64,000 nucleotides of DNA, taken from contig NIVC01001136.1 in assembly GCA_002269645.1 (NCBI GenBank), forward strand, positions 1 through 64,000. The letters run 5' to 3'. Below are positions 2,860 through 46,049 of this stretch, piece after piece. Source of the stretch: Macrostomum lignano. Lineage: Eukaryota. Numbering within the stretch: the first letter of the stretch is position 1; the number at the start of each line of letters is the position of its first letter. The position numbers were made by a program, and so were the translations under genes. Under the pieces are notes generated by a model that saw nothing but the letters and a program-made list of their open reading frames with translations, was not told the DNA's origin and did not search any database.

Positions 2860-3595
2860 GTTTCTTTAGCCATGGTCTGGCTTTTGCCTCATGATTTAGC
2901 CGTATGCTCCGACTTTTGCCTCAACAGTATGATTTAGTCGTATGGTCCGACTTTTATCCCAACAGTATGATTTAGCTGTGGTCCAGCTTTTACCTCAACA
3001 GTTTTTTAGCCGTGGTCCGGCTTTTTTTGCAACAGTATTATTTAGCTGTGGTCTAGCTTAAAACTGAATCAACAGTGATTTAGTTATAGTCCAGGCTTAA
3101 CTACCTCAACGATGATTTAGCTATAGTCCAGGCTTAACTGTCTCAACAGTAATTTTAGCTGTAGTCCAGACTTAACTGCCTCAACAGTGATTTTAGCTGT
3201 GGTCCAGGCAACTGTCTCAACAGGGATTTAGCTGTAGTCCGATTAGCTTAACTGTCCAGTTATTTAGCTGTGAGCCAAGCAGCAGCACCCGTCTCAACAG
3301 TGAGAATTAGCTATGGTCAGCTTTACCTCAACTGTGATTTGGCTGCTGTGGTCTAGCATAACTGACTCAACAGTAATTTTAGCTGTAGTCGTCCAGCTTA
3401 ACCACCCGTCCAGTTTTATAACCATGGTCCAGCTTAACCACCGTCTCAACGAACAGCGATTTAGTCGTGGTCCAGCTTAACCGTCTCAACGTACAGTGAT
3501 TTAGCCATGGGTCTAGTAGCAATTAACCGTATCAATAGTGATTTAGCCGTGGTCCAGCTTAACTGTCTCAACACAGTAATTTAGCTTAGTCCAAA
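2860..3595. repeat. Degenerate ~36-40-bp tandem array (consensus approx. TGATTTAGCTGTGGTCCAGCTTAACTGTCTCAACAG)
   Basis: TTTAGCTGTGGTCC and TCAACAG modules recur roughly 18-20 times between two divergently oriented genes. Confidence 0.85.
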
Positions 3596-4209
3596 CAGCA
3601 TTTGTGTGTCAACTGCACTGACTGCATGCGGTTATAGCAGCGGCAGTCATTATAGTCCCAACAAGCTGCGCGTCGCAGCATGATAGTGTAACTCTATATA
3701 GCTTCTGCTCAATATAGGACTGCAAAAGCTGAGTTGCAACTATACCTTTTTCTGTTTGAAAAGTAACACTCTATATATAGGTTACTCAAGCAATCTCTTG
3801 TCATCGTGCGAGCTAAAAAATTCCAACATGCAAGCAAAACTTTCAATAAATTAATTTCATAGCACCGCGTGCAGCTTATTTTTACTCTAAAATCCAAGAT
3901 TGCTAATTTTTCAAGTCGCAAAATATTTTAATTACATTCTACTTGAGAACAAAACCAATCTAATGAAGCAACAACCAGCAGTCTTCTTATTAAACGCTTG
4001 CCATCGTGTTACTCTTGCAAATTTATAACTAGTGTGCCTAAGATTCATTAATTTTATTGTATAAAATATCAACCTGCATTTGCGTAAAATTAGACCTAAT
4101 TGTGCAACCCACAATAGAAACTTATGCCACCTTTGGCACGCAACATGCCTTAATCAGCACGCAACAATTAAATTTGTTTACTAGTTCACAAACAGCATGC
4201 AATGCTTGC

Positions 4210-4217
4210 TATAAATA
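4210..4217 (+). promoter_or_regulatory. Canonical TATA box (TATAAATA) upstream of the replication-gene block
   Basis: TATAAATA lies 86 nt before ATG 4296. Function is inferred from position. Confidence 0.45.
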
Positions 4218-4295
4218 CAAGACCCGAAATGGTCAATTTTTCATGAGCTCAATCATTACAGCAAAAGAAATACTATATTCAATTGCTTGTAAGAC

Positions 4296-5522
4296 ATGGC
4301 AGCTTGCATCAAGACGGAGTCAATTGTACGCTCCGACTCGAGTCCGATTTTCTACGTTGGAGAGCAGTCTACAACCACGACTGGTTCGTCCTGCCAGTTT
4401 CGATCTATTGCGTGGAAACCATCAATCGAGTGTACAAAATGGTACCCAATTATATTGCAAACCAAGGCTCCAATGGAGCTTTTTCGTGGAATCGCAGAAA
4501 GGCCAGAGCTCGATCATCCGTCTTGCAGACACGACTCTCGCGACGCAGTAAGTGTCCAATTTCATCCAGACAGCTGCGATAAGGAACTCTTCCACTCTCT
4601 CCGGTGAGCACCATATTTAATTTATACAATTAATTTTAAAAACTTTTAAAAATTTAAAAAACAAATATTCATAATTTATATAATGTTTTGCAGTCAAGTC
4701 GAAAAAGGTCTATCGGGCAAGTTGAACGAGATTCAAGATGCTCGACCCTTGGCACGACTAACAAAACCAGCTCATCAGCATGCTAACGACGTCCTCGAGT
4801 TTGTGCCTCAACAATGGCTGGCTATAAAGCCTGCTTACCCTTGTGCCACAATCAGGATCAGCAACGATCATCCACACGGGAAGGAGGTGTCCATTTCCGA
4901 TTTCAAAGGTGTCAGCGGTACCTACCAAATGACAGTGCAAGCAACGAGCTTGTATTGTCCAAAAGGCAGCCTCGTCTGGCGCATTACATTCGCTGTGCGC
5001 TCTCTAACGCTCATAGAATCTTCCGACAACATGTTGCAGCGCCTTGACATGTTCAAGGGAGTGCTTGCACACCTACCTGCGACCAAGCCAGCAATTAGAA
5101 GCAGGAGTCCGTCCCCAACGTCTACCCATGACCAAGAAGAAGCAGATGAACAAAGCCGGCAGAATTCAAGCCAGGTGACGCCTGCCAAGTCACCTGCAAA
5201 GCGTCGGTCTACCACCACCGTATCGAAGAAGTCGACTCCATCGAATGCAGCGCCAGCATCTATTGAACCGGTGGCTAAAAAGCAAGTTCGCAAACGCAGC
5301 GGTGCAAAACAGCAAAACAATTCTGCCGAAGCTGGTGCAGATGGCACAGACTGGGTGAAGGCACCACCAGCAAAGATCTTGGTGAGTACACCTGCCTCTG
5401 GAACCCGGGTAGCGTCCAAGGAGACAGCATTTTTAAAGCATGCTGCTGCTGCTGCTGCGGACGCTACTACAGCTAGCGTGTATTCATCGGACGATTCGTA
5501 CAGCAGCTCTGATGATGAGTAA
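4296..5522 (+). CDS. Two-exon 378-aa protein, putative OB-fold single-stranded DNA-binding protein with disordered, acidic-ending tail
   Basis: Exon 1 4296-4603 (CG|GTGAGC); AT-rich intron 4604-4693 (TTGCAG); exon 2 4694-5522 in frame. The pattern IILQTKAPMELFRGI...VSVQF...ELFHSLRQVE plus a beta-rich C-terminal half recalls viral gp2.5-like SSBs. The tail is S/P/K-rich and ends SSDDSYSSSDDE. The fold call is pattern recognition only. Confidence 0.5.
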
Positions 5523-5730
5523 CAAAATTTTTGACTAATTTTATCCAAGTTTTAACTAACTTAATTCCACTATATTTATCAAATTTTTGGCTAGGGAAAT
5601 ATTATTTTTAGGGAAAAGCTCAAAACATTTTTGCTACTCCTTGTACGCCAACCAGGTTTTGTTACTTAATATTAGAATTTACAATAGTATAGTCTTGTTA
5701 ATTTTTTTTATTATTTACTTTCCGTTTTAG

Positions 5731-6288
5731 CGACTTGTCCTATTAATAGTTACTGCGAGTCTGAAGCTGCGTCCGTTTGAAAAATTTGATTTAAAGCAGA
5801 CCAAACAGAAGCTACAGACCAGAAACCGGTTTTGCAAACTATTCCTAAGCCGACCAACAATGCTAAAGACAATTTATTCAAACGCAAAAATCCAACTTTA
5901 TCCAGCAGGAAAACTAACTATATATGGCTGTAAATCAAATTCTCAGATAGTTTCAGTTTTACGATTTATCAACGATACTATTAATTGTGTAGATTTTGAT
6001 TCAGTAAAAATTCAGAGCAGTACCTATGTCGGCTTTATTGGTCATCTTTGGCCAAAATTCGGTTTCTCTAGTCTAAAAAGATATGCAGGCTACTATTCGA
6101 ATTATCTGGTTGGATACGATGCAGAAAATTTCCCACAAGCAGTTTCTGTTAGATCAAAATCAAAACCAAGACTTTTTTGTAACATATTTTTTTCGAAAAA
6201 GTTTGTTATTATGGGCGTTCAAAACACTCATGAATTGAATAATATTCTTAACCATGTCAAGGATTTTTTAATCTCTGTTAATAACTAA
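5731..6288 (+). CDS. Divergent TATA-box-binding protein (TBP)-like protein; needs an upstream exon for its start
   Basis: Open frame from acceptor TTTTAG|CGA (5730/5731) to 6288. Repeat 2 KIQSS...YDAENFPQAVSVRSKSKPRLFCNIFFSKKFVIMGV matches TBP KIQNM...[33 protein letters not shown]. Repeat 1 KFDLKQ...KIQLYPAGKLTIYGCKS matches KLDLKT...TALIFSSGKMVCTGAKS. Confidence 0.8.
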   Translation, partial: RLVLLIVTASLKLRPFEKFDLKQTKQKLQTRNRFCKLFLSRPTMLKTIYSNAKIQLYPAGKLTIYGCKSNSQIVSVLRFINDTINCVDFDSVKIQSSTYVGFIGHLWPKFGFSSLKRYAGYYSNYLVGYDAENFPQAVSVRSKSKPRLFCNIFFSKKFVIMGVQNTHELNNILNHVKDFLISVNN

Positions 6289-6516: not shown

Positions 6517-7221
6517 ATGCCGCGTGCACAATGTCAAATCTGCAGAAAAAAGTTCAGCAATCAAGCTGAGCTGCATGCTCACTCGCATGGTGATTGTTTT
6601 TCGCCGGAACGATTACTGGTCGGATCACTGCAAAACCTGATCGAAAACCCACCAGATGGATGGTCCATCACTTTGCGCGAGTCAGCTCATCGTGGTCGGG
6701 TAAATTTTGTCGAATTTACTCCCACTCTTGAACAACAAGACAGCAGCTCTGGCGAGTTACTTCCTGGCGAGTTGATTGCGTCTTTAAGAGGACTAATATT
6801 TAAAATATTGGAAAAAATTGGCTCACCTAGTTTATTAATAAGAGTCTGCTTTCACTTGAAAGTGACACTTTTTCGACCGAAAGCAGCAGCAGACGACAAC
6901 GATGGCTCGAGCAGCGAAGAAATCATCTCGGTCTATTTTAATACCAACATTGCGACAATATCATTTGATGAGACGATTGCAAACAGTGACATGCTGTTAT
7001 CTCCCGAGGCCTACAATGACTGGTTCGCACGCGTTATTAATCAGCTATTAACAAAAATAGACAATTTTCAATCTCGAGGCAGTAATTGGCAATATAGAGC
7101 AATCGAGCAGCTAGACTTGATGCTCTGCATTTATCGCAAAAGCCATGCAACCACACTGTTAACAAATACGTCCCACGATGGTGTGGGAGCGGGCGGCGGT
7201 GGTGGTGGTGGTGGTGGTGGT

Positions 7222-7259
<38 letters not shown>

Positions 7260-10200
7260 GCGCGGCGAGTCCGGTCCAGTCCGGTCCGGTCCAGTCCGGT
7301 CCGGTCCGATTAAACAGCGAGCGTTTAAAGTTCCACTCTCAATCGGGCGCAAAGCTGGAGCAGTACTGCTTCTAAAGCCGCACAGAGCAAATCAGTACGA
7401 CTGTTTTCGCTACTCAATATTGGCGAGTATATTTCATCCTTGTGTGCAAGATGCGAAAAGGAAAGACAGCTATGTGCAATGGATGAGAGAATTTAATTTT
7501 GGTCGACAAGCTAATGGACCAGCTCGCCATTCAAGTAGATCGTACAAAAAATTCTGCCGACGCAATCCGAGAGTTAGTCTACGAGTATTTGTGTGGGATC
7601 ACGACACCAAGACGAGCACATTATTTTACTCGCACAGAAGCAAATATGATGGCGATCGTTATTTTGCGAGCTGTCTGTTTGTGCCGCGGTATGACGATTT
7701 TGAATTTGGTCATTATTTACCAATTCGCAATTTGAACCGGTTATTGAGCAAGCGAGGTAAACAGCGACGATATTGTCCGGAGTGCACGGCTTCGTTTCCT
7801 TGCTCAACTTCGTGGGACTATATTCTCAAGGAGCATTGCTGTGAAGGTGGTAACGTGTCATCATCATCAGCTTCTAATATTGAATGGAGTTCGGATTTTG
7901 TGCCTCAAATCCGCGAGATTCGCCATCGACCACAAGAAGTAATGCCGAAACCAGAAGACGCAATTTTAAAATTTAAATCACACGAGGCAAAACTGCCTTC
8001 GTTGTATGTCTTGTACGCAGACATGGAATGTCTATGTGCACCTGCAAATAATGAAGCAAATGTAAAAAAGACTTGTAATTCGAAGCCGCTTGAAGTCCAC
8101 GTACCAATTTGTTTGGCCTATCGTCTGATAACTTGCCAAGGTTTGCAACTGACACCAAAACTAGCTGCAGCAGTTGGAATGGGCGACAAAAAACCTTGTG
8201 GAGTAATTTACTCGCAAAAAGATGGTGAGAATTGTGTTCGACTGTTTTTACGCAAACTTCAGACCATTGCCAGCGAGATTTGTCTGCATGCTCAGACTGA
8301 GACGTTTACTCCCTTGCTACGTGAATATCTCAATATTAAATCCAACAAGAAGCTTCAGCAGACTTGCCAACTATGCAAGCGAGTATTTGACAAGACTGAA
8401 AAAACTGTGCTGGACCATTGTCACTTGACTGGTTTGCCTCGTGGCATAGTTTGCGTCTCGTGTAATCGAAAGTTAAGTTTAAAACGATACCGATTGATTG
8501 TCTACTTTCACAATTTGGCTGCCTACGATGGTAAATTTCTTGTGCGAGAGATTTACAACGTGTTTTCTGGAAACAGTGTTCAACTAAGCGTGCTACCAGA
8601 GACTCGTGAACGCTTCAAGACGTTTTCGCTAAAGTTTACATTGCCAAGTAATCAACACAAGAATGGCTTTGTGCGGTTTGAGATTTGTTTCAAGGATACT
8701 TTTGCCTATTTATCGACAAGTTTGGCTACTCTAGCCGATCGACTGCTTCCCGAGCAACTAGTGCATACAAAAGAGTTGTTAAAAACGTATCCAAAGTTGG
8801 AGCTGGCAACTCTACGACAAAAGGGAATCTATCCCTACTCTTTTTTGGACTGCGAGGAAAAATTGGACAATGTGACACAGTTACCGCCGAAGGAGAATTT
8901 TTTCAACAAGCTTACAATGTCGCACTGCACGGAAGAAGATTATGGTCGAGCTTGTGTAGCTTGGAATCAGTTCGAGTGTCAAAATCTTCGAGATTATACA
9001 ACAGCCTATTTGTTGCTTGATGTACTGCTGCTATGCGACGTCTTTGAAAATTTTCGTCAGACTGCGCTGCGTGAATATGGTCTCGATCCGACTCACTTTT
9101 TGGGTGCACCGATGTTTAGCATGGTAGCCTGCCTGTTGCGGGTAGACGAGCCAATAAAATTGTTTACCGACGCATCTATGTATGCCGAAGTTGAGTCCTC
9201 CATTCGAGGCGGTTTCAGTTTTGGAACGCGACATGTAACGACGGCCAATAACCCGAGTGTAGCAGAGTACAGAAGCGAGTTTGATCGACTTGATCCGGAC
9301 TTTGAAAGCTTGCGAAAAAATGCACCATATGGAACTTATCTAGCATACTTGGACGCTAATTCGCTCTACTCAAGCTGCATGATTCAACCTTTACCAGTTG
9401 GCGATTTTTTATGGCTATCACGCGATGAAATTGGGAACATTCCAACCGATAGTGCGAGTGCAGACTATTTGGAAAGCCCAAGTGTTAAAAGTCAACTATT
9501 GGATTGGTTAGACAAGTTTTGTAACGACGAACAAGGAGCAATGTTCACTGTGGATCTATATTATCCTCGCTTCTTGCATGACTCGACAGCAGATCTTCCG
9601 CTTGCAATTGGTCACGAATTAGTTGGCGAAGACCGACTTAGTGAACAGATGAAACTGGACTGGTTTTGCCTTCAAAGAGAACTCAATCCAGATCGTTTTG
9701 AAAACGCAACAAGCTATGGTGATGTGAAAGCTTTCAGCAGCTCGACGCGAAAATTGATTGGGTCTGTGCTTCACAAAAAGAAGTATGTTGTGCATCATCG
9801 AGCTCTTCGATTGTATCTAGAATTGGGAATGCGCGTAACGCGTGTTTACCGCGTAATTCGATTTACAGAACGACCAATTTTGCGATACTATATTGAACAC
9901 AATATTGAGCGGCGTAAAGTAGCAAAAACTGAATTCGAACGCGACTTTTTCAAGTTGCTAAATAATGCTCTTTTCGGAAAGTTTCTGCAACGAGTTCGCG
10001 ATCGACTCAATTTCCGCATGTGTTCAGAAGCTGAAAAATTGGAGAAATATGTTTCTCGAGAAGATTTTCTTGACGTAGTAATTTATAATGAAAGTCTGGC
10101 AGGAGTTAGCCTCGCTCCACGTCGTGTTGCGCTAGACAAACCGATTATAATCGGTGCTGCAATCTTAGACATTGCAAAGACTCTTGTATACGACTTTTAT

Positions 10201-10752
10201 TACAATCATGTTCAGATTCATCATTCACTAGCAAGTGCTCGGGTACTCGCAGGAGATACTGATAGTCTTATGCTGGCTCTAGTTATGCGTAAACCGGACG
10301 AGACTCCTTACGATACCTTGTTCAAAGATTTGGCAGAAGAAGGTTTGCTAGACACGAGTAACTATTCACCATCGCATGCTCTGTACTCGACAAAGCACAA
10401 GGGTCGACTTTTGGCGTGGAAAGACGAGTTTAAAGGTTGTATACCACTGGAACTGGTATTTTTGCGACCAAAAAATTACTCCTTCGTGTATGCCAATGGA
10501 ACTATAGATCAAGTCTCGCGCTGCAAAGGTGTCTGCAAGACTGTAGCACAAAGTTTAAAGCATCAAGACTATTTGAGAGTTTTGCACAAGCGACAACTTG
10601 TGTTTTCGCGCATGCAGTCGATTCGTTCTAGAAAACAGAAAGTTTTTTTAATGCAACAAAGAAAACTTGCACTAAGTTTTTTCGACACGAAGCGATCTTG
10701 GACAGACTGCATCGATTCGCTGCCCTTTGGTCACTGGCGCTTGACCAATTAA
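6517..10752 (+). CDS. Protein-primed family B DNA polymerase (pPolB) with terminal-protein region, Zn fingers and an endonuclease-VII-like insertion
   Basis: Exo I YADMEC, Exo II HNLAAYDG, KGIYPY, Exo III YLLLDVLLL; motif A DANSLY, motif B KLLNNALFGK, motif C GDTDS; N-terminal C2H2 finger CQIC...H...H; CQLC...DHCHLTG...CVSCN module. First ATG is 6517 (the ORF track starts at GTG 6508). Confidence 0.97.
7192..7307. repeat. In-frame (GGT/GGC)n = 23 Gly, followed by CCGGT/CCAGT pentamer repeats, inside pPolB
   Basis: Seen directly; the reading frame is preserved. Confidence 0.9.
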
Positions 10753-11041: not shown

Positions 11042-11527
11042 ATGAATGCCGAGCAGCAGCAACAACAACAACAGCAGCAGCAGTACCAACTTTTAGTGGA
11101 ACGCCTGTACGAATCGGCAACAATTCCGGCCCGAAAAACTGTCGGCTCGATTGGTTACGATCTTTGCGCAGGCGTTGATGGCACTATTCCAGCCTACGAG
11201 TCCCGCAGTGTACGAACCGGACTTAAAGTCCGGTTACCGGCTGGTACGTATGGCAGGATTGCGGCCCGATCGAGCATGGCTCTGCGCGGTATCTTTGTTG
11301 GCGGTGGCGTAATCGACCCCGACTATACAGGGGAAATCTGTATAGTTTTATTCAACTACAGCTCGGAGGATTTTGATTACTACGCCGGGCTAAGTATCGC
11401 GCAACTCGTTCTTGAGCAGGCTGTGCTTGCTTCAGTCTATGCGATTGAAGCCGATAACTCCATTCGGAAGATTGAGCCGCCGACCAAGCGGCGCGGTTTT
11501 GGCGGCTTTGGAAGCACTGGTCAATAA
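11042..11527 (+). CDS. dut: Trimeric-type dUTPase with N-terminal poly-Gln
   Basis: All five motifs are present: GYDL, RSSMA, GGVIDPDYTGEI, IAQLV, RRGFGGFGSTG. Confidence 0.95.
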   Translation: MNAEQQQQQQQQQQYQLLVERLYESATIPARKTVGSIGYDLCAGVDGTIPAYESRSVRTGLKVRLPAGTYGRIAARSSMALRGIFVGGGVIDPDYTGEICIVLFNYSSEDFDYYAGLSIAQLVLEQAVLASVYAIEADNSIRKIEPPTKRRGFGGFGSTGQ

Positions 11528-11652
11528 TAATGATAATGATAATAAACTGATTTTTTTTTATTTGGTGATTGGGCACTATGCCTTGTAAATGCTATAAGCA
11601 ATTTTAAAATTTATGCCAAAAAAAAAATATATATATATATATATGTTGTAAA

Positions 11653-12072
11653 ATGTCTCCAGCGAAAGATCGAGGTTTTAAAAAGAAAAAGAAGAGCAGT
11701 CGTATAAAGAAGAAATCTATTAGAAAGATTAATAAAAAGCAACAAGGTTTTGGTGTCGTAAATTGGTTAATTAATCATTTACCATTTGAAGCGCATTTAC
11801 CCGGCGGATATCAGTTTTGTGGTCCAGGTACGCAACTGCAAGCTAGGCTAGCAAAAGGACAACGAGGAATCAATCGACTTGACAATTTGTGCATGCTTCA
11901 CGACGTGGCCTATGATAAAAATTCGGACGTGCAAGAGAGATTAAAAGCTGATAAGCTATTAGAATCTGGTGCACGAGAAATTGCCCACGATCCGTCTACT
12001 GGTTGGAAAGAAAAACTAGCTGCGAAGTTGGTTACCAAGGTTATGCAAGTTAAGCAACGCTTTGGTGCTTGA
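11653..12072 (+). CDS. Parvovirus VP1u-type phospholipase A2 domain protein with basic N-terminus (Polinton virion accessory protein)
   Basis: Ca-loop QFCGPG and catalytic LHDVAYD; K/R-rich N-terminus followed by QQGFG. Confidence 0.85.
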   Translation: MSPAKDRGFKKKKKSSRIKKKSIRKINKKQQGFGVVNWLINHLPFEAHLPGGYQFCGPGTQLQARLAKGQRGINRLDNLCMLHDVAYDKNSDVQERLKADKLLESGAREIAHDPSTGWKEKLAAKLVTKVMQVKQRFGA

Positions 12073-12074
12073 AA

Positions 12075-12764
12075 ATGCAGCAGCCATACAATATGCAACT
12101 AGCTCACGATTCTACATTTATTATTGCTGGACCTTCAAACTCGGGTAAAACTGAATGGACGTTGCGTTTGTTGACTGAACGAAAAGAATTATTTGATGAA
12201 AAACCGCGTCGTCTTGTTTGGTGTCATGGATCAAGTTTGAAACCAGACGATCAACAACGAATTAGAACATGCTGGCAAAAGAGCGGTCTTGACCCTATTG
12301 TTTTTGTACCCGAATTCATACCACAGATGATTAATCGTTTTTTACCACACGATTTGGTTGTTGTTGACGACTTGCAAAGCGAGATTGCTAAGTTGCCAGA
12401 ATTTACTAGTATGTTTACAAAGCATGCGCATCATATCCCTTTGACTTGTCTGTATCTTTGTCAAGGTCTTTTTAACAAGTCTGATCCCGAAGCACGCATG
12501 CGAAGTTTATCAGCTAGTTATATTTGTCTAACTCGTAGTGTGCGCGATCGAACCACAGTTGAGCATCTCGGTCGACAAATGTATCCGCGTAATAGTAGGT
12601 TTCTAGTGAATGTGTATGAAGACGCAACAAATAACAAACCTTTTTCATATTTATTCATTGACCTGCGACAAATGACACCCGATTTTTTACGATTGAGAAC
12701 AGGAATCTTTCCTGGCGATGAGCAAGTTGTCTATACTCGTGAATGTGATGCAAAGTTTGTGTAA
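12075..12764 (+). CDS. A32/FtsK-like DNA packaging ATPase
   Basis: Walker A GPSNSGKT, Walker B VVVDDLQ, and the A32-family segment FTKHAHH...CLYLCQGLF. Confidence 0.93.
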   Translation: MQQPYNMQLAHDSTFIIAGPSNSGKTEWTLRLLTERKELFDEKPRRLVWCHGSSLKPDDQQRIRTCWQKSGLDPIVFVPEFIPQMINRFLPHDLVVVDDLQSEIAKLPEFTSMFTKHAHHIPLTCLYLCQGLFNKSDPEARMRSLSASYICLTRSVRDRTTVEHLGRQMYPRNSRFLVNVYEDATNNKPFSYLFIDLRQMTPDFLRLRTGIFPGDEQVVYTRECDAKFV

Positions 12765-12821
12765 TATTATTATAAGCAAATTATAAACTGTTGTCAATAT
12801 TAGTTTGTGTTTTATTTCAAA

Positions 12822-13811
12822 ATGAGTTTTTACGTTTTTTTGCCGTCAAACGATATCAGTTACGAAACCAACTCGCCTAATGAATTTCGAGTACGACTAA
12901 CTGAACCAATAAATTTATTGAACGGATTCTTCGAGGTTGCACTAGTTGAATTACTTTGCCATGGAGCAATTACGACCCCAAATGCTCATCGTGAGCGTCG
13001 ATTTGAAGTTCCATATTTTGCGGACATTGACTCAATAATACGATTAAAGAAAAACTATTGGGGTCGCGTTTGGGCAGAGGCAGACTTGGATGCTTACGTT
13101 TCCTGGCAACCGTCTGGTACAAATGAAAAATTTGCCTGGCTTTTACGAAATTCAGGCGAAAAAACTATTGGATTAGAACTACCGGTTACATTTATGGACG
13201 CTTTCAAATTTGACTCTTGGAAGAAACTTTCTGGACTTGTCTCGGAAAAATTATCAAAACCTACCGCTGGTAGTGTACAACCACCGGATGGATCATACTT
13301 GGATGTGGTAAAAAGTCTCGACAATACTCTAGCGCTAGTACCTGAGAACTATTATGTTTTTTATTGTGTTCTATCGCCTGGTGAAGCTATACGACTTGTT
13401 TCGCATGGAGACTATCTTCAAAAAACGGAAGGAGAAGTGTACATCAAATTACACCAATATTGGTTGAGAAATCGTATTTGGCGCATTAACAAAACCTACT
13501 TGGATGCTGTGCTACCTTCTCCGATGCCTAGTAAAACGGTTTACATGTACTGTTACACAGACATAATCGAGTATCAAGCAGTGGGAAGTACATCAGTACC
13601 GTTGCTTCGAGTTGTGGAACTCCAACAAAAGAAAAATGGAGAACTTGTACGCGATAGCAGTGCATTGCAAACACCCTACTACTTGAAAACAAATCGACAA
13701 CAAATTCACGAGATTTCGATTCGACTATCGGACCAGCGCGGAAAACCATTTAATTTTCATCCGGGAGCACACGTTGTTGTCGTACTGCATTTTAGACACA
13801 GGTCAGACTAA
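12822..13811 (+). CDS. Minor capsid protein (penton-like single jelly roll)
   Basis: N-terminal LPSN...FRVRLTEPINL.G.FEVALVE and C-terminal YTDII...VG...PLLRVV...ISIRLSDQRGKP...VVVLHFR are typical of Polinton minor capsids. Confidence 0.85.
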   Translation: MSFYVFLPSNDISYETNSPNEFRVRLTEPINLLNGFFEVALVELLCHGAITTPNAHRERRFEVPYFADIDSIIRLKKNYWGRVWAEADLDAYVSWQPSGTNEKFAWLLRNSGEKTIGLELPVTFMDAFKFDSWKKLSGLVSEKLSKPTAGSVQPPDGSYLDVVKSLDNTLALVPENYYVFYCVLSPGEAIRLVSHGDYLQKTEGEVYIKLHQYWLRNRIWRINKTYLDAVLPSPMPSKTVYMYCYTDIIEYQAVGSTSVPLLRVVELQQKKNGELVRDSSALQTPYYLKTNRQQIHEISIRLSDQRGKPFNFHPGAHVVVVLHFRHRSD

Positions 13812-13867
13812 TTTATAAGCAAAGATTAATGTGTAAAAAGAAAATTTTGTGAATTTTTTTTGTAAGA

Positions 13868-14296
13868 ATGAACGAACTAACAGAAAAAGGAAAACGAAAT
13901 GCTCGCTCATTGTGTCAGTGTGCTTTTTTACTACAAATTGTTTATCGGCTAAAGCATCCAAAGCAGAGAAAAAGTTTTTTACAAACACTTTCAGAGTCGG
14001 AGATACGATGTCTAGTAGACTTTCTGTTTAATATTATTAGTGGACGTATTAAAATTAGTAACTGTAACAAAAGACGACTTGAGAAGCATCGCAGATATAT
14101 ACGTCAGCTTTTGGAACAGAAGACTCCAATTACTGCAAAAAGGAAAATACTTGTCCAACACGGAGGATTTTTACCTTTTTTGGCTCCAATTATTGCCGCT
14201 CTACCTGCTATAAGCACTGCGCTTGGGATAACGTCTGGAGTAGTTGGTACCGCCGCGGGAGCAGCAAATTTAATACGATCAATTCAACGAAAGTAG
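13868..14296 (+). CDS. Conserved Polinton small virion protein with a QxGG/FLP cleavage site and amphipathic C-terminus
   Basis: EIRCL...NIISGRI...L.KHR..IR.L...KRKIL.QHGGFLP pattern, then FLPFLAPIIAALPAISTAL. Confidence 0.7.
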   Translation: MNELTEKGKRNARSLCQCAFLLQIVYRLKHPKQRKSFLQTLSESEIRCLVDFLFNIISGRIKISNCNKRRLEKHRRYIRQLLEQKTPITAKRKILVQHGGFLPFLAPIIAALPAISTALGITSGVVGTAAGAANLIRSIQRK

Positions 14297-14994: not shown

Positions 14995-15092
14995 TTTGTT
15001 TTAAATGTTTTAACAAAATTGATTCGAGCACTATAAGCTTTTTAAAAAGGTTAATTTTGTTTATGAAAATATATAGTTTAATAAGACAAACC

Positions 15093-15281
15093 ATGTCATC
15101 TATCTGCCAAAAACTTTTGATTCGTCTCTGTGAGTTTTTTTGCTTAAAATCCGAATGTGTGCCGTTTCTGGGAGAGGAGCACAACGAGGATACTGACGGA
15201 AATTCGATCGAGGCTTCGTTCTTTTGTTGCAATTGGCATACGAATAGCATCAATCTAACTCATGATGAAGCGAGTGCGTAA
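15093..15281 (+). CDS. Small Cys-containing ORF (62 aa) overlapping the integrase start
   Basis: MSSICQKLLIRLCEFFCLKSEC...; ATG lies 61 nt after TATAAGC 15032, the same spacing as the other motif-associated genes. Confidence 0.4.
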   Translation: MSSICQKLLIRLCEFFCLKSECVPFLGEEHNEDTDGNSIEASFFCCNWHTNSINLTHDEASA

Positions 15282-16422
15282 GGAAATTGAAGAATTTTTG
15301 ACGGATGCTTTTTTTAACTTGAACAAACCTACTTCATTTAGTGGTAACAAGACTATACTTGTTCGTGAAGTGCGTAAAAAGTTTCCACAGATTACGAACA
15401 AAGTTGCGAAGCGCGAAGTTGATAATTGGGTGCGATCAACAAATGAGCATCATTTATTTCGAAAAACACGACGAAACTTTCCAACTCCAAAAATTAGTGT
15501 ACCACCAGTTGCAAAGTTTCAGTTTCAAATCGATTTGGCAGATTTACCTCGATACAAGACGGAAAATCGAGGTTATCGTTACATACTTGTTCTGATTGAC
15601 TGTTTTACTAGAGTTGTACGACTAAGACCATTGCGTACAAAGAAGCCTTCAGAAGTTAGTCAAGTATTACTAGAGATTTTTCGAAGTGGTTTTAAGCCTG
15701 TTTATTTACAAGGTGATGCTGGTATGGAGTTTCTCGGAAGAGCTACACGTCAAATGCTGAAACAGGAAGGAGTTCGATTTTTTGTTAGCCAAAGCAATTA
15801 CAAGGCAAGCATGGCTGAACGATTTATCCGCTCGCTAAAGGAGCGTCTATTACGATACTTTCGAGCAAAAAATTTACCTCGATGGTTTGATATTTTGCCA
15901 CAATTGGAAGATAATTTCAACTCTAGTCCTCATCGATCCTTGAGTGGAGAAACACCAAAACGTGTAGAGACAGACCCACATTTACAAGGAATTTTGTGGG
16001 ACAAAATGTTTGCGAAGTCGTACACTAAAAAGAATGAGAATAAATTTAAAGTTGGTGATTGGGTTAGAATTACACGACGTCGAGGAACATTTGAAAAAGG
16101 ATACACTACGAGTTGGAGTAATTCAAAATATCGCATTCACCGTGTACACTTGACAGAACCGCCAATGTACGAATTAGCGGACCCTGAAGATGGATTTGAA
16201 GTGCTGAAAGGAAGGTTTAACCAAGCGGAACTAATGTTGGTAAACGAGACAGATGAAACACCTAATGAAATTGAAAAAGTTATTGAAACTGATCGATCGA
16301 AAAATGGAAGTCGTCTGTATCTAGTAAAATGGAAAGGTATGCCAATCTCAAGAAGTCAGTGGTTAAACGAAAAGGATCTTGACGCAAAGACTGCTAAACT
16401 ATTTTCTAAAGTGTATAAGTAA
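15262..16422 (+). CDS. Retroviral-like (rve) DDE integrase with SH3-like and C-terminal chromodomain
   Basis: QIDLADL (D), LQGDAGMEF (D), ASMAERF (E); FKVGDWVRI; IEKVI...YLVKWKG...QWL. Confidence 0.96.
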   Translation: MMKRVRKEIEEFLTDAFFNLNKPTSFSGNKTILVREVRKKFPQITNKVAKREVDNWVRSTNEHHLFRKTRRNFPTPKISVPPVAKFQFQIDLADLPRYKTENRGYRYILVLIDCFTRVVRLRPLRTKKPSEVSQVLLEIFRSGFKPVYLQGDAGMEFLGRATRQMLKQEGVRFFVSQSNYKASMAERFIRSLKERLLRYFRAKNLPRWFDILPQLEDNFNSSPHRSLSGETPKRVETDPHLQGILWDKMFAKSYTKKNENKFKVGDWVRITRRRGTFEKGYTTSWSNSKYRIHRVHLTEPPMYELADPEDGFEVLKGRFNQAELMLVNETDETPNEIEKVIETDRSKNGSRLYLVKWKGMPISRSQWLNEKDLDAKTAKLFSKVYK

Positions 16423-16463: not shown

Positions 16464-16922
16464 ATGGATCCTATTTTTGCTTTTTATTCTGGTCCGAATA
16501 GATCTGCTGAAGGTGGAGGTGGATCTGGCATTCCTGTTTACGAAGGTTACGGTTTTTTGTCAAATTTGGCGGACAGATTGGTGTATCCTGTACTACGCAA
16601 CGCAAAGAAAGATTTCTTGGATCGTGGTCTGGAGTATTTGAAAAGTGCGACAGCAAAAATTGGTATGGGTCGGAAGCGTCACTTGGACACAGAATCGAGC
16701 GAAGAGATGTTTAATACACCTGCAGTCTCGAGACCAAAGCGAAGGAAAAGAACCAGTGGAGTGGCTATAAGCTTAGGAAAGAAGAAACGACAAAAGAAAC
16801 GACGAACAAGACAGTGTGGAAAAGGACGCGTGAACAAACGAAAACGCAAGAGGGTAGGTGGTAAAAGAAAACGTCGAACTGCTACTGCAAGCAAGAAACT
16901 TTTTAGTCTGTTTGAAAAGTAG
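16464..16922 (+). CDS. Basic DNA-condensing core-protein precursor (adenovirus pVII-like role inferred)
   Basis: YEGYGFLSNL amphipathic segment, then a protamine-like K/R-rich C-terminus (RPKRRKR...KKKRQKKRRTRQCGKGRVNKRKRKR). Confidence 0.7.
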   Translation: MDPIFAFYSGPNRSAEGGGGSGIPVYEGYGFLSNLADRLVYPVLRNAKKDFLDRGLEYLKSATAKIGMGRKRHLDTESSEEMFNTPAVSRPKRRKRTSGVAISLGKKKRQKKRRTRQCGKGRVNKRKRKRVGGKRKRRTATASKKLFSLFEK

Positions 16923-16923
16923 C

Positions 16924-18246
16924 ATGAATCATTTGCTTGGACCTGATATTGCTGCTCTTAAAAGTGAATTGTCGCTATTTGATCAAAGTCCTGTTCAGTT
17001 TAGTGTTTTGGATAATCGGTATACTAACATTCAACCGCAACATGGTATTACAAAAGGATCACCTATCGAATTTGAGGTTGTGCCTGCAGGCGATTTGTAT
17101 TTGGATCTACAAGAAACTGTGCTCACGGTATGCTTCAGCGTTAGTGATAGTGAAGGTGAACCTATAGATGCAACAAAAAATTTTGTTTGTTTGAATAATT
17201 TGGCTATTGGAACATTGTTTGAAGACGTTCAATTTACTATTGGCGATACTGTAGTTGAAGGTGGTAGTTTTATGTATCCATACAAGGCTATGCTTCTTAC
17301 ATTACTGGAATACGGACATACAGCTCAGAAGGCTGGTTTACTACCGTGGGGATTTTACAAGGATACAGCTGGTAAAATGAATGCAACAAGTGAAAACGAT
17401 GGACGAACAAAGAGGCAGGCGCTTATTGCTAACAATAGGCGGTGCACTGTATCGGGGCCGTTATTCTTGGATTTGTTTCGTCAGCCTCGGTATCTACTAT
17501 CAAAGACACCACTGCGGATCAAGCTCATACCGGCAAAAAGTAAATTTGTCCTGAGCGGGTCAACATTAGAAGCTGGTGCGGTATTAAAAGACTATGAGAT
17601 CAAGTTTTTGCGTGCAGAACTACGATTGCGGTTTGTTCAACCCTCGCCGAGTGTTATCAGTGCACATGCTCATGGACTTAAAAGTCACAATGCATTATAT
17701 CCGCACCGAAGTCTAAGCCTTGGTACGTTTACTATACCCCGAGGATCGTCTAGCCATACGCATGAAAATTTGTTTCCTAGTGGAGTACCACGGCTTTTAT
17801 TGATGGCAATCGTAAGCAACAAGGCATTCAATGGAAGCATGGACACTAATCCGTTCAACTTTGAGCATGCAAATGTGAGCAGCATTGGTGTGTTTGTGAA
17901 TGGAGACTCGGTACCATCGCGTCCGCTGCAGACAAACTTTGGAGATGATTGTGTGACAGAGTATAATTTTTTGCTACAACAGCTTGGAATCTATCTACAG
18001 GGACGAGATATTGGATTTAATATGCTGGATTACGGTAATGGTTACTCAATTTTTGCATTCAGTCTTGGAAGTGAACCTGGTGTCGGACGAGGAGTGCAAC
18101 TGTATAAGGAAGGAAATGTAAAACTAGAGTTACGCTTCAATGCTGCAACTAGTACCGTGTACAACGTCATATTTGGAGGTATATTTGACAAGCAACTGCA
18201 ACTGACTGAACTTCGCGACATTGTTCCTGGCACAGTATGGAAGTAA
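16924..18246 (+). CDS. Major capsid protein (double jelly roll)
   Basis: KSELSLF...PIEFEV...YLDL and later GPL..DLF.Q.RYL, NPFNF, GY.IFAF.L, LELRF motifs. ATG at 16924 (the ORF track starts at 16858). Confidence 0.93.
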   Translation: MNHLLGPDIAALKSELSLFDQSPVQFSVLDNRYTNIQPQHGITKGSPIEFEVVPAGDLYLDLQETVLTVCFSVSDSEGEPIDATKNFVCLNNLAIGTLFEDVQFTIGDTVVEGGSFMYPYKAMLLTLLEYGHTAQKAGLLPWGFYKDTAGKMNATSENDGRTKRQALIANNRRCTVSGPLFLDLFRQPRYLLSKTPLRIKLIPAKSKFVLSGSTLEAGAVLKDYEIKFLRAELRLRFVQPSPSVISAHAHGLKSHNALYPHRSLSLGTFTIPRGSSSHTHENLFPSGVPRLLLMAIVSNKAFNGSMDTNPFNFEHANVSSIGVFVNGDSVPSRPLQTNFGDDCVTEYNFLLQQLGIYLQGRDIGFNMLDYGNGYSIFAFSLGSEPGVGRGVQLYKEGNVKLELRFNAATSTVYNVIFGGIFDKQLQLTELRDIVPGTVWK

Positions 18247-18800
18247 TTGATTCTATCCTAGATCGTGGAGTAACAGATCGCTTCCTTCGCAATGTTGTAT
18301 CGAAATTGTGCGCACATTTTTTAAATGTTGTATTTCTTGGTGTTTTTCCTCAAAACTTTGTTGGTGGACTTAGACGCTTACCTTTAGACGGTAAAGACTA
18401 TTTTTTTATCGTTAATACTGACGTCTCTAACCTGCCCGGAAAACATTGGGTATGCGTTTGGGTTTATGGTCATCGAGCAGGTCGCGGTAGCAAACGACTT
18501 GGTGAATATTTTGATTCTCTTGGTCTAGTACCATTGCCAAGAATAGCAAAATGGCTAGGAAAAGAATGTGGAAATTCGAAAAATTGGTGTTATAGTCGCT
18601 TTGCTATCCAAGACCCGCAGAGTGGAAGTTGTGGATTTTGGGTAATTTTTTATATTTTTCATAAGTTGACTACCAGAGGAAACCTAGAGTGTTTTATTCG
18701 AAGCGTTTTTAAACGGAATATAATTCGCACTGGTTCGTTTCGATACTTGTATGGTAAATTACGCAATTTTGTTTTACGAGTGCTGCCTCAATATTTGTAA
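18237..18800 (+). CDS. Adenain-like (C5) cysteine maturation protease
   Basis: His/Asp/Cys motifs: NTD...GKHWV, YFDSLG, Q....SCGFW. Confidence 0.92.
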   Translation: MEVIDSILDRGVTDRFLRNVVSKLCAHFLNVVFLGVFPQNFVGGLRRLPLDGKDYFFIVNTDVSNLPGKHWVCVWVYGHRAGRGSKRLGEYFDSLGLVPLPRIAKWLGKECGNSKNWCYSRFAIQDPQSGSCGFWVIFYIFHKLTTRGNLECFIRSVFKRNIIRTGSFRYLYGKLRNFVLRVLPQYL

Positions 18801-19735
18801 ACTCGCTAATTTGTGCGTCAAATTGTGTTTATATCTAGTTGAAATATACAATATACTGCTTGAAAAGAAGAATTTAAATGCGTTAAGTTATACGTGAAAT
18901 AAGCTTTGTGTCAAATTGAATTTTGGTTGGGCTTGTAATTAGCAGCATTCATTGCGGATAGAATTTAGGTGGATAGACAGGTGTTTGCGTAAAAGTGATT
19001 CAGCTAATTGGTTAATTCATTGCGTAAAAGCTAGTTTGCGTGCACGGCAAATTTCGGACTCTGCCATTTTTTTGGGCCTGTACTTACTATGTATTTCGCC
19101 ATAAGGAAATCGGCTTTGTGTCAAAAAAACGTATACTACTATTGTATATTTTGCTATCCTCTCTCGCAACCGTATAAAATTGGCACGATCGATAATTTTA
19201 AGTTCTCTCGCCAGCCAATGAAATCACTCGTGCTCGCGCTACCCCCCTCTGCGCTCTTTTATTAAACCCCCCCCCGCCTGGCGGCGGCACTCCCCGCTTG
19301 TTCCTTGATTCCTTCCCTGCGGCCTCTTAGCTGTCTTATCTGTTTGTCTGGCTGCCTCGAGCCTCCTTATTTCTCACCACGGCCCCTCTGCCTGGGCCAG
19401 CCTGCTCACACACTTACTTGACTGTTTCGCGCCACGACCGACGCCAACTCGCCACTACGTTTCACTGCCTTCACTGTGCTCATAGCCACTGCTCACGTCA
19501 CGTCGCCATTGTGTCATTCGCCTGCCACTTGACTTCATATCCAAATTATATTCAACCCATTGTTGCAGCCGCCAGTGCCCAGAAAGCTATAGTCTGTTTA
19601 TTGCCAGTAACAACCAAACTTAATACTGATATTAACAATAAAGACAACTACGGCAGTTCCTGCCTTTATCGCCAAGTGCTCCGCTACAAAATCCGCTTTA
19701 CAAGAATTGACTTCAACTTATTTTGGGACTAAAAC

Positions 19736-43023: not shown

Positions 43024-43938
43024 TGTTGTTCTACTATATTAGACTTGTTTGCTTTTGGCTACTGCGCAATGGAAGAGTTGCCAAGTTAGTTTGACTCAGG
43101 GTCGAGCAATATTTTGACCTTCGAGTCTAATTTCTCTCACGCTCTGTCGCTGCGAGTTACTGTAGACTTCGTTGAGGAATCTTATACGTTGAGCGTTACT
43201 TAGGAAGGAGCTGTGCTATGCATTTTTATGAGCAACCGCAGGAGCCTTTAGAAGTACACTCGCATTGCTGTCACGTGCTATTTTAGGCAACAAATTTAGC
43301 GTTTAAAATACACGCAAGACGCCTATTTATACGCGTATAGTTTGTGTACGCTTATGCCAGAGTACAAATAAACAGTTAGCTTCATGTATGATCTAGGAGT
43401 TTTACTCTGACAAAAACGTTAATTTTAGATCATAAACCAAACAAGCAAGTACATCTGACTAAGCCCCGTAAAAGCGTGTTAGTAGGAACTAAAATCTATT
43501 TCTTGTTAGTACCCTTATGTTTATCATTGCTGCTAAGATGAAATCTTTTATAACGATACAGTCTAAATGACATAAAAATTTAAGCTTAGCCATCAAGAGC
43601 TCTCGCAGAGTCTACCAATAATGAAAATTCAACTAGGAATTTTGAAGAGTTTAAATTCTAAACGCGTTATTGACAGTCAAGCTGACTCGCTAATACATAA
43701 TTCAAGTTGCTGCAGAATTTAAATTTTGCTTACACTAAGTGTCTCTAGTTTCAACCTTCTAAGACGCAGGTCTTCCTGTAGTAGAAATTGAACTACTCTG
43801 AAGCTTGGTAAACATTTGCACAATTTTCTGGTGGAAAATGGTAGGAGCGATGGCAGTGTAGAAGCATAAAAACCAGCACATTGACTCTTTTTGCGGAAAA
43901 ACTGCATAGGGAACGTTTGCTTTGCAATAGAGAAAAAC

Positions 43939-44930
43939 ATGGCATTGATTTTCCATTCACTAATTTTATTCTTCTGCTACAAAGCAGCGTCTGCTCAATA
44001 CAGTTGGGCTGAGCAGAGGGACGACCTGAGCGAGTACAAGCTTGAAACCTCGGTGGCTGGCGTGCGGAGCGGCTTGGACTGCGCGACTCTCGCTGGACCG
44101 CAGCATCAAGCGGTTGAGTTCACTGAGCTCGGTGGCATCTGTCGATTGTACAGCTGCCAGCTTGGAACGAGCGGATGCAGAAAGTGCCGCAATGCGAGAA
44201 ACTCGACTCTGCCTCTGCTACTGGTAGGTGCTCACCGTGCGATCCATTTTTATTCCAATGTCTGTTGCTATCGTGATGCATTATTAATGACCCTACGATT
44301 TGGCTAACCGTGATATTACAGGTGAGACAGCTGGACGAGCTCGGACGAACCTGCTGGCGCACCTTCCAGCACCGAGTGGACGGCTCGGTAGATTTCTACC
44401 GGAACTGGACAGACTACTTGACTGAGTTCGGACAGGGCGAGGACAGAAACTACTGGATGGGTCTGGAGGCGATCCACCAGCTCACTCGAGCCGGAGACAG
44501 GCGCGTGAGGTGGGAGATGAGCGACTGGAACGGCACTCGCTACTGGTGGGAGGACGCTCAATTCGCCGTGCAGAACGCCAGCCAGGGATACCGAGTCAGC
44601 GTCGGAGAGCCTGAAGTCAGCCGGTCGAATGTTGCAACTTGCAGTCATACCGTTGGTGCCTACATGAACAATGCGATGTTCAGCACACCGGATAAAGATC
44701 AAGACAGATGGTCCAGTAACTGCGCAGTCACCTACCAAGGAGCCTGGTGGTACGGCAGTTGTCACTGCTTCAACCCGAACGGTCGGTACTTCACGCCTCC
44801 AGCAGCTTTTTACTTGTCTGAGCCGTTGTGGGCCGACGGACTTACATTCTCTTCCCCAGGCATTGGCTATCCACTGAACCACTACTACTCAATGAAGACT
44901 TTTGAATGCATGGTGGCTGCTTCTGTTTGA
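43939..44930 (+). CDS. Secreted fibrinogen-related protein, copy 1 (signal peptide + PAN/apple-like domain + FReD), 297 aa
   Basis: Exon 1 43939-44223; intron 44224-44321 (GTAGGT...CTAAC...TACAG); exon 2 44322-44930. FReD motifs FQHRVDGSVDFYRNW, YWMGLE, FST.DKDQD, GAWWYGSCH. Confidence 0.9.
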
Positions 44931-46049
44931 ACTATACTTTAGTGCCTACTATATGTCATGTATCCCCTTAAAAGTTTTGAGCGCTTCACAACAACCTTTT
45001 TTAAACTTAGTCGCGTAGCTGATATCTGCAGTGTCGTAAAAGATCTGTATGTCTACGTGTCCCAACGTCGGTAAACTTTCCCCGTGTATTTGGCACTAGT
45101 TCTTTCTTGCTTATTTAACTATTCCGTGTACTAAAAACCTTTTCGAATGTTACGGTCTATAGCTAGAGAGGGATGGATCCATGTTGTATATGCTTCTAAA
45201 AATAATGCTCATTTGTGAGCAAAAAAGAAGAAAACAATGCAAAGTGTTTATTTTTTATCTGTAAACTCGAAGGCACATTTAGAGACGTGTACTGCTAAGC
45301 TTTTTTCGAGTCTTAAATATATATTGAAACTATCTAAAAAATGAAATCTATACTATTGCAGGTGTTCTTTGCTATTTTTCGTTTTTCGTAACGATTTTGT
45401 GGGACCATGCGTAAAATGCTTCAGCAAGTAGTGTGAGTAAATTAGCTGATTTTCTTCTAACATAAACGCGCTAGTGACTTGTCTAACGCGTATTTTTGTT
45501 CAAAGCCTTAACCAAAAGTCCCTTCAGAAAAGCATTTTTCATTACTTCTGTCTACGAAGCTGCTACGGCTTATTAATAAGTAATAATTCTGCCAAAACCA
45601 TTCTCTATCGTTGCGTGTAGGAATAGAAGTTTCCACTCAAACAAAAGCCTAGCAGCTTCGTCGCAAGTGTAAACTGCGGGCGAAAATGCAATTTGTGAGT
45701 TGGGAACAAAATCTAGCTATAGGGGATCTGCAAGACGCGGCGGCCCATGCAGCGTTTTAATTAGCTTTCTTCCCCAAAAACTGGTTGGAGAATTGCCAGC
45801 TGGGGCTGTTAAGTCTTCCCTCCACCAGCAGTCTTTCTAATGGGTTAGGCATCTACGCAGTGACAACAAAAACTGTTTTTTAGCAACGCAAGAGCTGGCT
45901 GTGGATAAAGGCGCATATTAAGAATGCGCATAAAGAATCTTCTTACTAAGCCCACTTGCAACAGCAGCTAACCAGACCACGTCTATTGAGCTACTCTCGT
46001 AAAAAGCCTAAATTGTGCAGGCACTCAATTTTCCTTTCGAAAACTCGCC

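Follow-up and report, generated by a model that had tools for sequence, protein, structure and literature searches.

A Polinton element of Macrostomum lignano carries a gene for a divergent two-repeat TATA-binding protein (TBP), which is an old viral gene of the Polinton lineage and probably serves as the element's own late-promoter specificity factor, working with the host RNA polymerase II (Pol II). The element was analyzed in a stretch of 64,000 nucleotides (contig NIVC01001136.1, positions 1 to 64,000 of the forward strand; hereafter the window), where the TBP frame occupies positions 5731–6288. Viral TBPs are known already; what is new is a conserved TATAAGC box preceding the putative late genes, combined with a canonical TATA box preceding the TBP gene itself. 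The agreement between a non-standard TATA box and an altered TBP points to a small animal virus that has a late-gene switch of its own.

With a conserved split between early and late promoters and a viral factor as candidate, it becomes possible to test how a Polinton expresses and times its capsid genes without a helper virus, and the host has dozens of near-identical copies of the element. If the proposed role is correct, it would provide independent support for a viral life cycle of Polintons, a naturally occurring TBP/TATA pair of altered specificity, with the changes in box and protein confined to the halves that face each other, and a parallel to herpesvirus late transcription with far fewer parts.

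Identification of the TBP fold

The two-repeat TBP layout claimed in the initial annotation of the frame 5731–6288 was borne out by all structural and profile comparisons, and the frame encodes a genuine TBP fold. The Pfam family PF00352 matched it in two stretches with 31.2 bits (cut-off 22.9), and a profile of ten relatives matched solved TBPs with E-values from 2e-9 to 1e-5, TBPs or TBP fusions accounting for 35 of the 36 PDB matches listed. The AlphaFold2 model (pLDDT 91.6, pTM 0.69) was compared with known structures by Foldseek, a check that had been proposed along with the annotation: there were 44 matches at E≤0.001, all of those listed being TBP entries, with the best match at 5e-8, TM ~0.44 and rmsd ~7.5 Å. 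In the VIA-align ranking, five TBP chains lead (Z 12.0–10.3, 166–167 aligned residues, rmsd ~7–8 Å) and the first non-TBP fold follows at Z 8.4. The high rmsd values suggest that the angle between the lobes of the model differs from that in solved TBPs, being either real or a model artefact.

At the residue level, the C-terminal repeat is conserved and the N-terminal repeat has drifted, as the annotation had stated. In the alignment, F134 and F153 of the window protein are equivalent to the intercalating F190 and F207 of yeast TBP, and D130 and E132 to the acidic residues E186 and E188 of the C-terminal stirrup. In the N-terminal repeat, Y57 occupies the F116 position and the F99 position has no Phe, so that of the four intercalating phenylalanines typical of the TBP family only the F190 and F207 equivalents are found; both QN asparagines (N69 and N159) are gone. 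Among 17 Polinton-type sequences, the E188, F190 and F207 equivalents are retained in all 17, which also share Tyr at the F116 position and Ser or Thr at the N159 position. The E186 equivalent is acidic in 13 sequences and replaced by Asn or Ser in four environmental relatives, L189 is retained in a single sequence, and the N69 position holds Leu or Gln in group A and the original Asn in groups B and C (the groups are defined below).

Structure of the Polinton element

The TBP exon adjoins a two-exon gene on its 5' side and the gene of the protein-primed DNA polymerase B (pPolB) on its 3' side, followed by the remaining genes in the order given here (all on the forward strand except the strandless repeat):

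6517..10752, +, protein-primed DNA polymerase B (Pfam DNA_pol_B_2, E 4e-20)
11042..11527, +, dUTPase (Pfam, E 7e-29)
11653..12072, +, PLA2-like protein (Pfam Phospholip_A2_4, E 3e-9)
12075..12764, +, putative packaging ATPase (Walker A motif; Pfam Pox_A32 at E 0.046 only)
12822..13811, +, putative penton (minor capsid), from position and size; conserved in six families
13868..14296, +, mu/pX-like core protein (Pfam Adeno_PX, E 2e-6)
15262..16422, +, RVE integrase with a chromodomain (Pfam rve and Chromo, both above cut-off)
16924..18246, +, putative major capsid protein, from position, size and conservation; 65–81% identical across families
18237..18800, +, putative adenain-like protease (Pfam Peptidase_C5, E 0.033; the group B counterpart is above cut-off)
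19037..19140, no strand, right terminal inverted repeat (TIR), 104 bp with an ACTACT end, from comparison of sister copies

The putative major capsid and penton proteins had no sequence match in Pfam or PDB. Judging from the sister copies, which have 104-bp TIRs with AGTAGT...ACTACT ends, the left TIR lies ~465 bp before the first base of the window, the window's own left end being off the contig; the element size is 19.6 kb. A 6-bp target site duplication (TSD) was found in three of five readable copy pairs, and in the other two the flanks pair across contigs. The combination of pPolB and an RVE integrase with TIRs having AGT-repeat ends and a 6-bp TSD identifies the element as a Polinton/Maverick. 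The location of the TBP gene inside a Polinton, assumed in the initial annotation, is therefore confirmed: an element bounded by TIRs and TSDs encloses positions 5731–6288.

Several features of the copies were noted in passing. The right flank of the window (19141–19146) equals the left flank of the copy on contig C84, the right flank of C84 equals the left flank of C2373, and the left flank of C4064 equals the right flank of C593 (loci L077, L078, L091, L081 and L084), a pattern that points to swaps in the assembly or to recombination among copies that are nearly identical. Compared with window positions 7390–10551, the copy L092 (G000:C3924:24700-34100) misses ~3.2 kb of pPolB, the TBP exon, splice sites and late genes being intact; judged by the spacing between TBP and capsid genes, most copies of the window family likewise have no such segment, and these copies are a successful non-autonomous derivative. 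In the full pPolB (6517–10752), Pfam recognizes an endonuclease VII domain (E 1e-11), and a long stretch of glycines lies near residue 230. A segment of ~1.6 kb (1262–2855) is found in the window, C84 and C2373 copies and is missing from the majority subfamily. In the left arm, degenerate tandem repeats with ~30-bp and ~28-bp units occupy positions 2860–3600 and 284–460, and a 197-codon frame at 431–1024 follows an acceptor-like site.

Splicing and the upstream SSB-like gene

The region upstream of pPolB contains the following features, all on the forward strand:

4296..4603, +, upstream gene, exon 1, which encodes the N-terminal half of an SSB-like domain; conserved in five aligned families
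4604..4693, +, intron 1, 90 nt, GT..AG; joint found in contigs of runs X1 and X8
4694..5522, +, exon 2, with the C-terminal half of the putative OB-fold SSB-like domain, a basic linker and an acidic tail up to the stop codon
5382..5387, +, predicted phase-0 splice donor, within a K-x-L-V-S motif that is invariant although the rest of the exon 2 tail aligns poorly
5382–5730, +, predicted intron 2, from conservation of donor and acceptor
5706..5730, +, pyrimidine tract and TAG acceptor in phase 0, directly 5' of the TBP frame; same place in all six group A families
5731..6288, +, TBP-like 3' exon, 185 codons and a stop; the earliest in-frame ATG is at 5860 (codon 44)

The 186-aa frame had initially been treated as a stand-alone gene, which we correct here: it does not begin with a start codon and, judged by sequence conservation, is probably a spliced 3' exon with a phase-0 acceptor, because its first ATG is codon 44, the acceptor abuts the frame, and purifying selection acts on codons 1–43 just as it does on the remaining codons (pN<pS in all 15 family pairs). 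In all six families, a phase-0 GT[AG]AG donor within the K-x-L-V-S motif is the nearest such donor to the TBP exon, and a YAG acceptor with a pyrimidine tract abuts the TBP frame in phase 0. The donor and the acceptor AG of intron 2 are intact in every one of the 20 near-identical copies compared.

That the upstream gene undergoes splicing follows from contigs of two of four runs (X1 and X8, from two studies), which skip the 90-nt intron 1, the RNA status of these runs being a guess; the joint is not listed for runs X3 or X17. Among the contigs of the same four runs, whose coverage is gappy and whose RNA status is likewise guessed, no joint to the TBP exon at 5731 is listed; one contig of run X8 crosses intron 2 unspliced, and a loose contig end at 5762 in run X3 has no match elsewhere in the window. 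Two products are predicted from this arrangement: retention of intron 2 would give a 378-aa protein with the acidic tail, and its excision a 517-aa fusion of the SSB-like protein with TBP. No natural fused form of this kind was found among longer proteins by a word-seeded search.

Three other candidates were rejected. Met44 as the true start is ruled out by purifying selection on codons 1–43, an internal donor at 4548 as the splice partner is found in the window family only, and an overlapping 102-aa ORF at 4243 has no match in other families.

The N-terminal domain of the upstream gene may, from modelling, be an OB-fold SSB. Exon 2 folded alone had pLDDT 51; Foldseek matched it to a phage ssDNA-binding protein with probability 0.99 but E 0.08; its comparison with the DUF2815 structure 4klk gave Z 2.4 and rmsd 5.0 over 63 aligned residues; and the lead in the ESM Atlas was DUF2738 at 0.89, with 10% of members. 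We take both DUF2738 and DUF2815 to be SSB families. When the upstream gene product was compared with OB-fold SSBs of the T7 gp2.5-like/DUF2738 type, an acidic tail was present and the fold match was weak; a PDB sequence search with exon 2 had no match.

The neighborhood of the TBP exon invites another explanation, namely that the TBP domain serves replication or packaging, the SSB-like fusion bending or gripping DNA at the termini or forks. The exon lies within a replication block (SSB-like gene, deoxynucleoside kinase, pPolB, dUTPase), a splice to the SSB-like gene is predicted, and in one family TBP is fused in frame to the kinase. We nevertheless regard such a role as quite unlikely: in the distant Polinton group B the TBP gene is stand-alone, has its own ATG and closes the late cluster, passages of PMC7221094 assign the stirrup acid a part in the binding of TFIIB, the SSB assignment is itself weak, and the late box described below would be left unexplained.

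Families, selection and phylogeny

The search of the genome with the TBP frame yielded 84 matches among 96 scored candidates, of which 26 are full-length at 99–100% identity, and five further families are found at 39–46%. The six families, designated group A, are syntenic and the five further ones have open frames; some copies carry stops or frameshifts. The dN/dS analysis among copies that had been proposed with the annotation was performed and demonstrates purifying selection: the ratios are 0.12–0.56 in five within-family pairs (with few changes), and between families 0.18 in the closest pair and 0.19–0.25 in three distant pairs, two pairs being saturated. In all 15 family pairs pN is less than pS for all three parts of the TBP exon.

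These data bear on the possibility that the exon is a decaying passenger whose expression has been lost, an explanation to which the stops and frameshifts of some copies and the absence of a spliced joint to the TBP exon in the contigs lend something. It is very improbable given the number of full-length copies, the open frames of the five further families, the selection acting on every part of the exon and the intact splice sites of all 20 copies.

The Pfam TBP search of the genome gave 330 candidates, 150 of which were scored. Twelve of these 150 rows are the host TBP and TRF2-like genes, found in three places each with equal score, and their cores (L041, L047) are single exons. Of the other 138 rows 20 were examined, and 19 of these 20 have a Polinton gene match within 10 kb. 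Two further Polinton groups with TBP were identified: group B, a distant group with capsid proteins ~28–31% identical and a stand-alone TBP gene, and group C, represented by one copy. Eight environmental proteins fall in groups A and C.

Searches of wider collections gave little. A protein search with a wider alignment found six matches among 6767 candidates, a word-seeded search with the single TBP sequence had no match, and neither did PHROGs searches with TBP and with exons 1–2. No match was found in IMG/VR scans with the TBP, host TBP, exon 2 and capsid queries or in a JGI scan with the TBP query. One protein, P0002, has 7048 aa with 63 repeats and a tick source label.

A tree of 24 sequences was constructed for Polinton groups A–C with flatworm TBP/TRF2 and archaeal TBPs. 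The three Polinton groups cluster together against the three flatworm TBP/TRF2 and two archaeal TBP sequences (96/95), and the joining of group A to host TBP is rejected (p-AU 0.03), with long branches as a caveat to both. A phylogeny with host TBP/TRF and NCLDV TBPs had been proposed; the present tree covers the host part of it. The initial annotation had spoken of a captured TBP, and a recent capture from host TBP appears unlikely on these sequences: purifying selection and the occurrence in two further Polinton groups argue for an old viral gene.

The gene neighborhoods differ among groups. In one family (L027:3940-5319 (-) and L028), the TBP frame continues in frame into a deoxynucleoside kinase domain; this kinase is the next gene in four other families and is missing from the window family. 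In group B, a 285-aa ORF runs at its 3' end into the TBP gene (L057:4293-5385, L054:4281-5400), and pPolB is convergent. This ORF presumably resembles a DEDD nuclease, by motif; it has no Pfam match. Group B also has a PC4-like ORF (L105:7429-8157; Pfam PC4, E 8e-5, below cut-off) upstream of the integrase and with a canonical TATATAAG on its 5' side, which may take the role of the SSB-like gene of group A.

Candidate early and late promoters

Two kinds of TATA boxes were found in the element, all on the forward strand:

4210..4217, +, canonical TATA box, 5' of exon 1; TATAAA or TATATAA in 6/6 families
11593..11599, +, TATAAGC, 60 nt before the PLA2-like gene; such a box in 4/6 families
12771..12777, +, TATAAGC, 51 nt before the putative penton gene; 6/6 families, at 43–54 nt
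13814..13820, +, TATAAGC, 54 nt before the mu/pX-like gene; 6/6 families, at 43–88 nt
14209..14215, +, TATAAGC, 96 nt before a 229-aa ORF; window family only (1/6)
15032..15038, +, TATAAGC, 230 nt before the integrase gene; 5/6 families, at 230–270 nt
16414..16420, +, TATAAGT, 50 nt before a 152-aa ORF, overlapping the last integrase codons; 5/6 families, at 12–51 nt
16766..16772, +, TATAAGC, 158 nt before the putative major capsid gene; 6/6 families, at 124–165 nt

All 40 occurrences of TATAAG[CT] in the late regions of the six families lie on the sense strand, and no family had its count matched in any of 200 dinucleotide shuffles. No such word is found in the early region of any of the six. 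It also precedes the dUTPase gene in two, the ATPase gene in one and the protease gene in none of the six families, and two TATAAG boxes overlap coding sequence. The word TATAAGC was first picked by eye; in the ranking of all 7-mers done afterwards it is the top word, with 32 sense and no antisense occurrences. The initial annotation had proposed that the protein reads an altered TATA sequence, and TATAAGC, present before putative late genes in 6/6 families, is a candidate for this target.

In group B the top word is TTAAGAA, with 38 sense occurrences and one antisense (five related copies), giving a box YTTAAGAA that also precedes the group's own TBP gene; the group C copy contains TATAAGA three times. 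The box and the TBP co-occur in two well-sampled groups only, the six group A families being kin. In 26 outside (metagenome) Polinton fragments, which end short of the early region, neither box is enriched and no TBP match was found. The best TATA-like word on the sense strand of such fragments (L118, L119, L121–L124, L126, L130, L134) is the canonical TATAAAA (22 versus 5), which hints, if weakly, at host-type boxes in other Polintons.

Both boxes contain TAAG, which is the core of baculovirus late promoters, and virophages share promoter motifs with their helper viruses. A virophage-like element is therefore conceivable, in which a larger helper virus would supply the RNA polymerase that reads the boxes and the TBP-like gene would have a separate role. 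We consider this improbable: the flanks of TAAG are conserved inside each group and differ between groups, and the early gene is a nuclear Pol II gene, as its spliceosomal introns and canonical TATA box indicate.

A different explanation assigns the late box to host TBP or host TRF2 and makes the viral domain a decoy or repressor, which would sequester TFIIB or TBP partners or block promoters and so dampen host or early transcription. The best-kept surface of the protein is indeed the C-terminal repeat with its acidic stirrup, the QN asparagines and the F99 equivalent being lost, and the host owns both a TBP and a TRF2-like gene. Host TBP may moreover tolerate TATAAGC, because wild-type TBP has been crystallised on TATA variants with a single G at position 6 or C at position 7 (G(-26) and C(-25); PDB 1qn5 and 1qn3, by their titles). 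On the other hand, a pure protein decoy needs none of the intercalating residues, and F190, F207 and an aromatic residue at F116 are invariant in all 17 sequences; and the box differs between groups with differing TBPs, whereas a host factor would be common to one genome. We thus regard a decoy as unlikely and retain the viral TBP as the probable reader of the late box.

A proposed model of late transcription

In the model that we favor, host TBP would transcribe the early gene from the canonical TATA box at 4210. Retention of the predicted intron 2 would yield the 378-aa SSB-like protein and its removal the 517-aa SSB-like/TBP fusion, whose TBP domain would bind TATAAGC in front of the integrase gene and of the putative genes for capsid, core and packaging proteins. 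By homology, the conserved C-terminal repeat would read the unchanged 5' TATA half of the box and the drifted N-terminal repeat the changed 3' half. Host Pol II would then be recruited, probably via TFIIB and the retained acidic stirrup, the outcome being an early-to-late switch that requires no viral RNA polymerase.

The box retains TATAA and differs at positions 6–7. Passages of PMC2761274 describe how human TBP inserts its C-terminal Phe pair at the first TA step and its N-terminal pair at the last, and in a purified yeast system non-consensus bases at positions 3–6 hurt basal transcription most (passages of PMC2396422). P191 favors T at the first box position, according to passages of 10.1101/2025.08.25.672222 and PMC12529657. 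Group A retains P191 in 9 of 10 sequences and its box begins with T; group B has lost P191 and its box begins with C or T. This link is weak, because the single group C copy has Asn at P191 and yet contains TATAAGA words.

No TFIIB or RNA polymerase gene was found by Pfam among the ORFs of the element, and the 15 Pfam TFIIB matches in the genome represent a few host-like loci. According to passages of PMC7221094, the stirrup acids make contact with TFIIB, and giant viruses whose TBPs vary at these positions usually have a TFIIB of their own. As the element keeps the stirrup acid and shows no TFIIB gene, we infer that host TFIIB would be used. A predicted complex between the TBP frame and host TFIIB, modelled from the latter's main exon without the first helices and with the alignment unused, scored 0.00 in two runs, a result that counts neither for nor against binding.

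A more specific version of the model is tentative and, in our view, possible rather than probable. It describes a minimal late system consisting of one viral TBP variant without viral TFIIB or polymerase, with a box that has co-diverged with the protein (TATAAGC versus YTTAAGAA). In this system late transcription would be physically tied to replicating DNA, because the TBP domain would be spliced onto an SSB-like protein in this group, and would be set by the splice choice.

Comparison with known systems

The Polinton TBP shares with cellular TBP/TRF (PF00352; PDB 7o4i, 1mp9, 1c9b) the two-repeat saddle fold and the F190, P191, F207 and E188 equivalents. It differs in that the window protein is ~20% identical, has Tyr at F116 and is without the F99 Phe, the QN Asn residues and L189; furthermore, it is encoded as a viral 3' exon and falls outside the cellular clade in the tree.

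ORF24 of KSHV, the vTBP of beta/gamma-herpesviruses, is similar in being a viral TBP-like domain within a larger protein (here predicted) that would use host Pol II and a variant late box. According to passages of 10.1101/2025.08.25.672222 and PMC12529657, ORF24 reads TATTWAA late promoters, the early genes of herpesviruses using host TBP; it keeps all four Phe, has no stirrup acids and needs five other viral factors. The Polinton protein, in contrast, keeps the stirrup acid and has an altered N-terminal repeat, and no such set of partners is evident in the 19.6-kb element, among whose ORFs no Pfam family of the herpesvirus vPIC type (ORF24/UL87/BcRF1) was found.

The TBP-like proteins of Nucleocytoviricota and mirusviruses resemble the Polinton protein as divergent viral TBPs (BFVD and ESM Atlas matches). 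The nearest ESM Atlas clusters by features are mostly viral PF00352, at 0.95–0.97, with a recognition score under the reliable mark. Many NCLDV have their own RNA polymerase. Most of the viruses with such TBPs also have a TFIIB gene of their own, and their stirrup acids vary (passages of PMC7221094), and TBPs have been reported in Nucleocytoviricota and mirusvirus-like elements (passages of PMC10675990). Unlike this orthogonal TBP-TFIIB system, the Polinton element shows neither a TFIIB nor an RNA polymerase gene.

Among elements of the same kind, adintoviruses and MELD viruses (Starrett et al. 2021, PMC8502044) have similar pPolB, RVE integrase, PLA2-like and pX-like genes and TIRs. The initial annotation had placed TBP outside the known Polinton gene set. 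This holds insofar as no full description was found in the literature, but in the legend of Fig. 5 of Starrett et al. (PMC8502044) a MELD virus of the non-animal section is labelled with a TBP-like gene; passages of that text give no residues, splicing, promoter or function for it. Polintons carrying VLTF3 are comparable as a subgroup with a transcription factor shared with giant viruses, the protein family being different (passages of PMC11131425), and the main text of that paper contains no TBP or TATA word. In the literature search, whose scope excluded Repbase, subscription journals, figures and bioRxiv supplements, a Polinton TBP was described only in the Starrett legend, late boxes and splicing nowhere, and no TBP or TATA passages were found in the other Polinton/PLV papers that were word-searched.

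Other features of the window

Outside the Polinton, the window contains three copies of a ~2.1-kb unit with ORFs of 110–250 aa (43900–49300), and an intact-looking 1332-aa gag-pol ORF of an LTR retrotransposon with reverse transcriptase, RNase H and integrase on the reverse strand (58826–62824).
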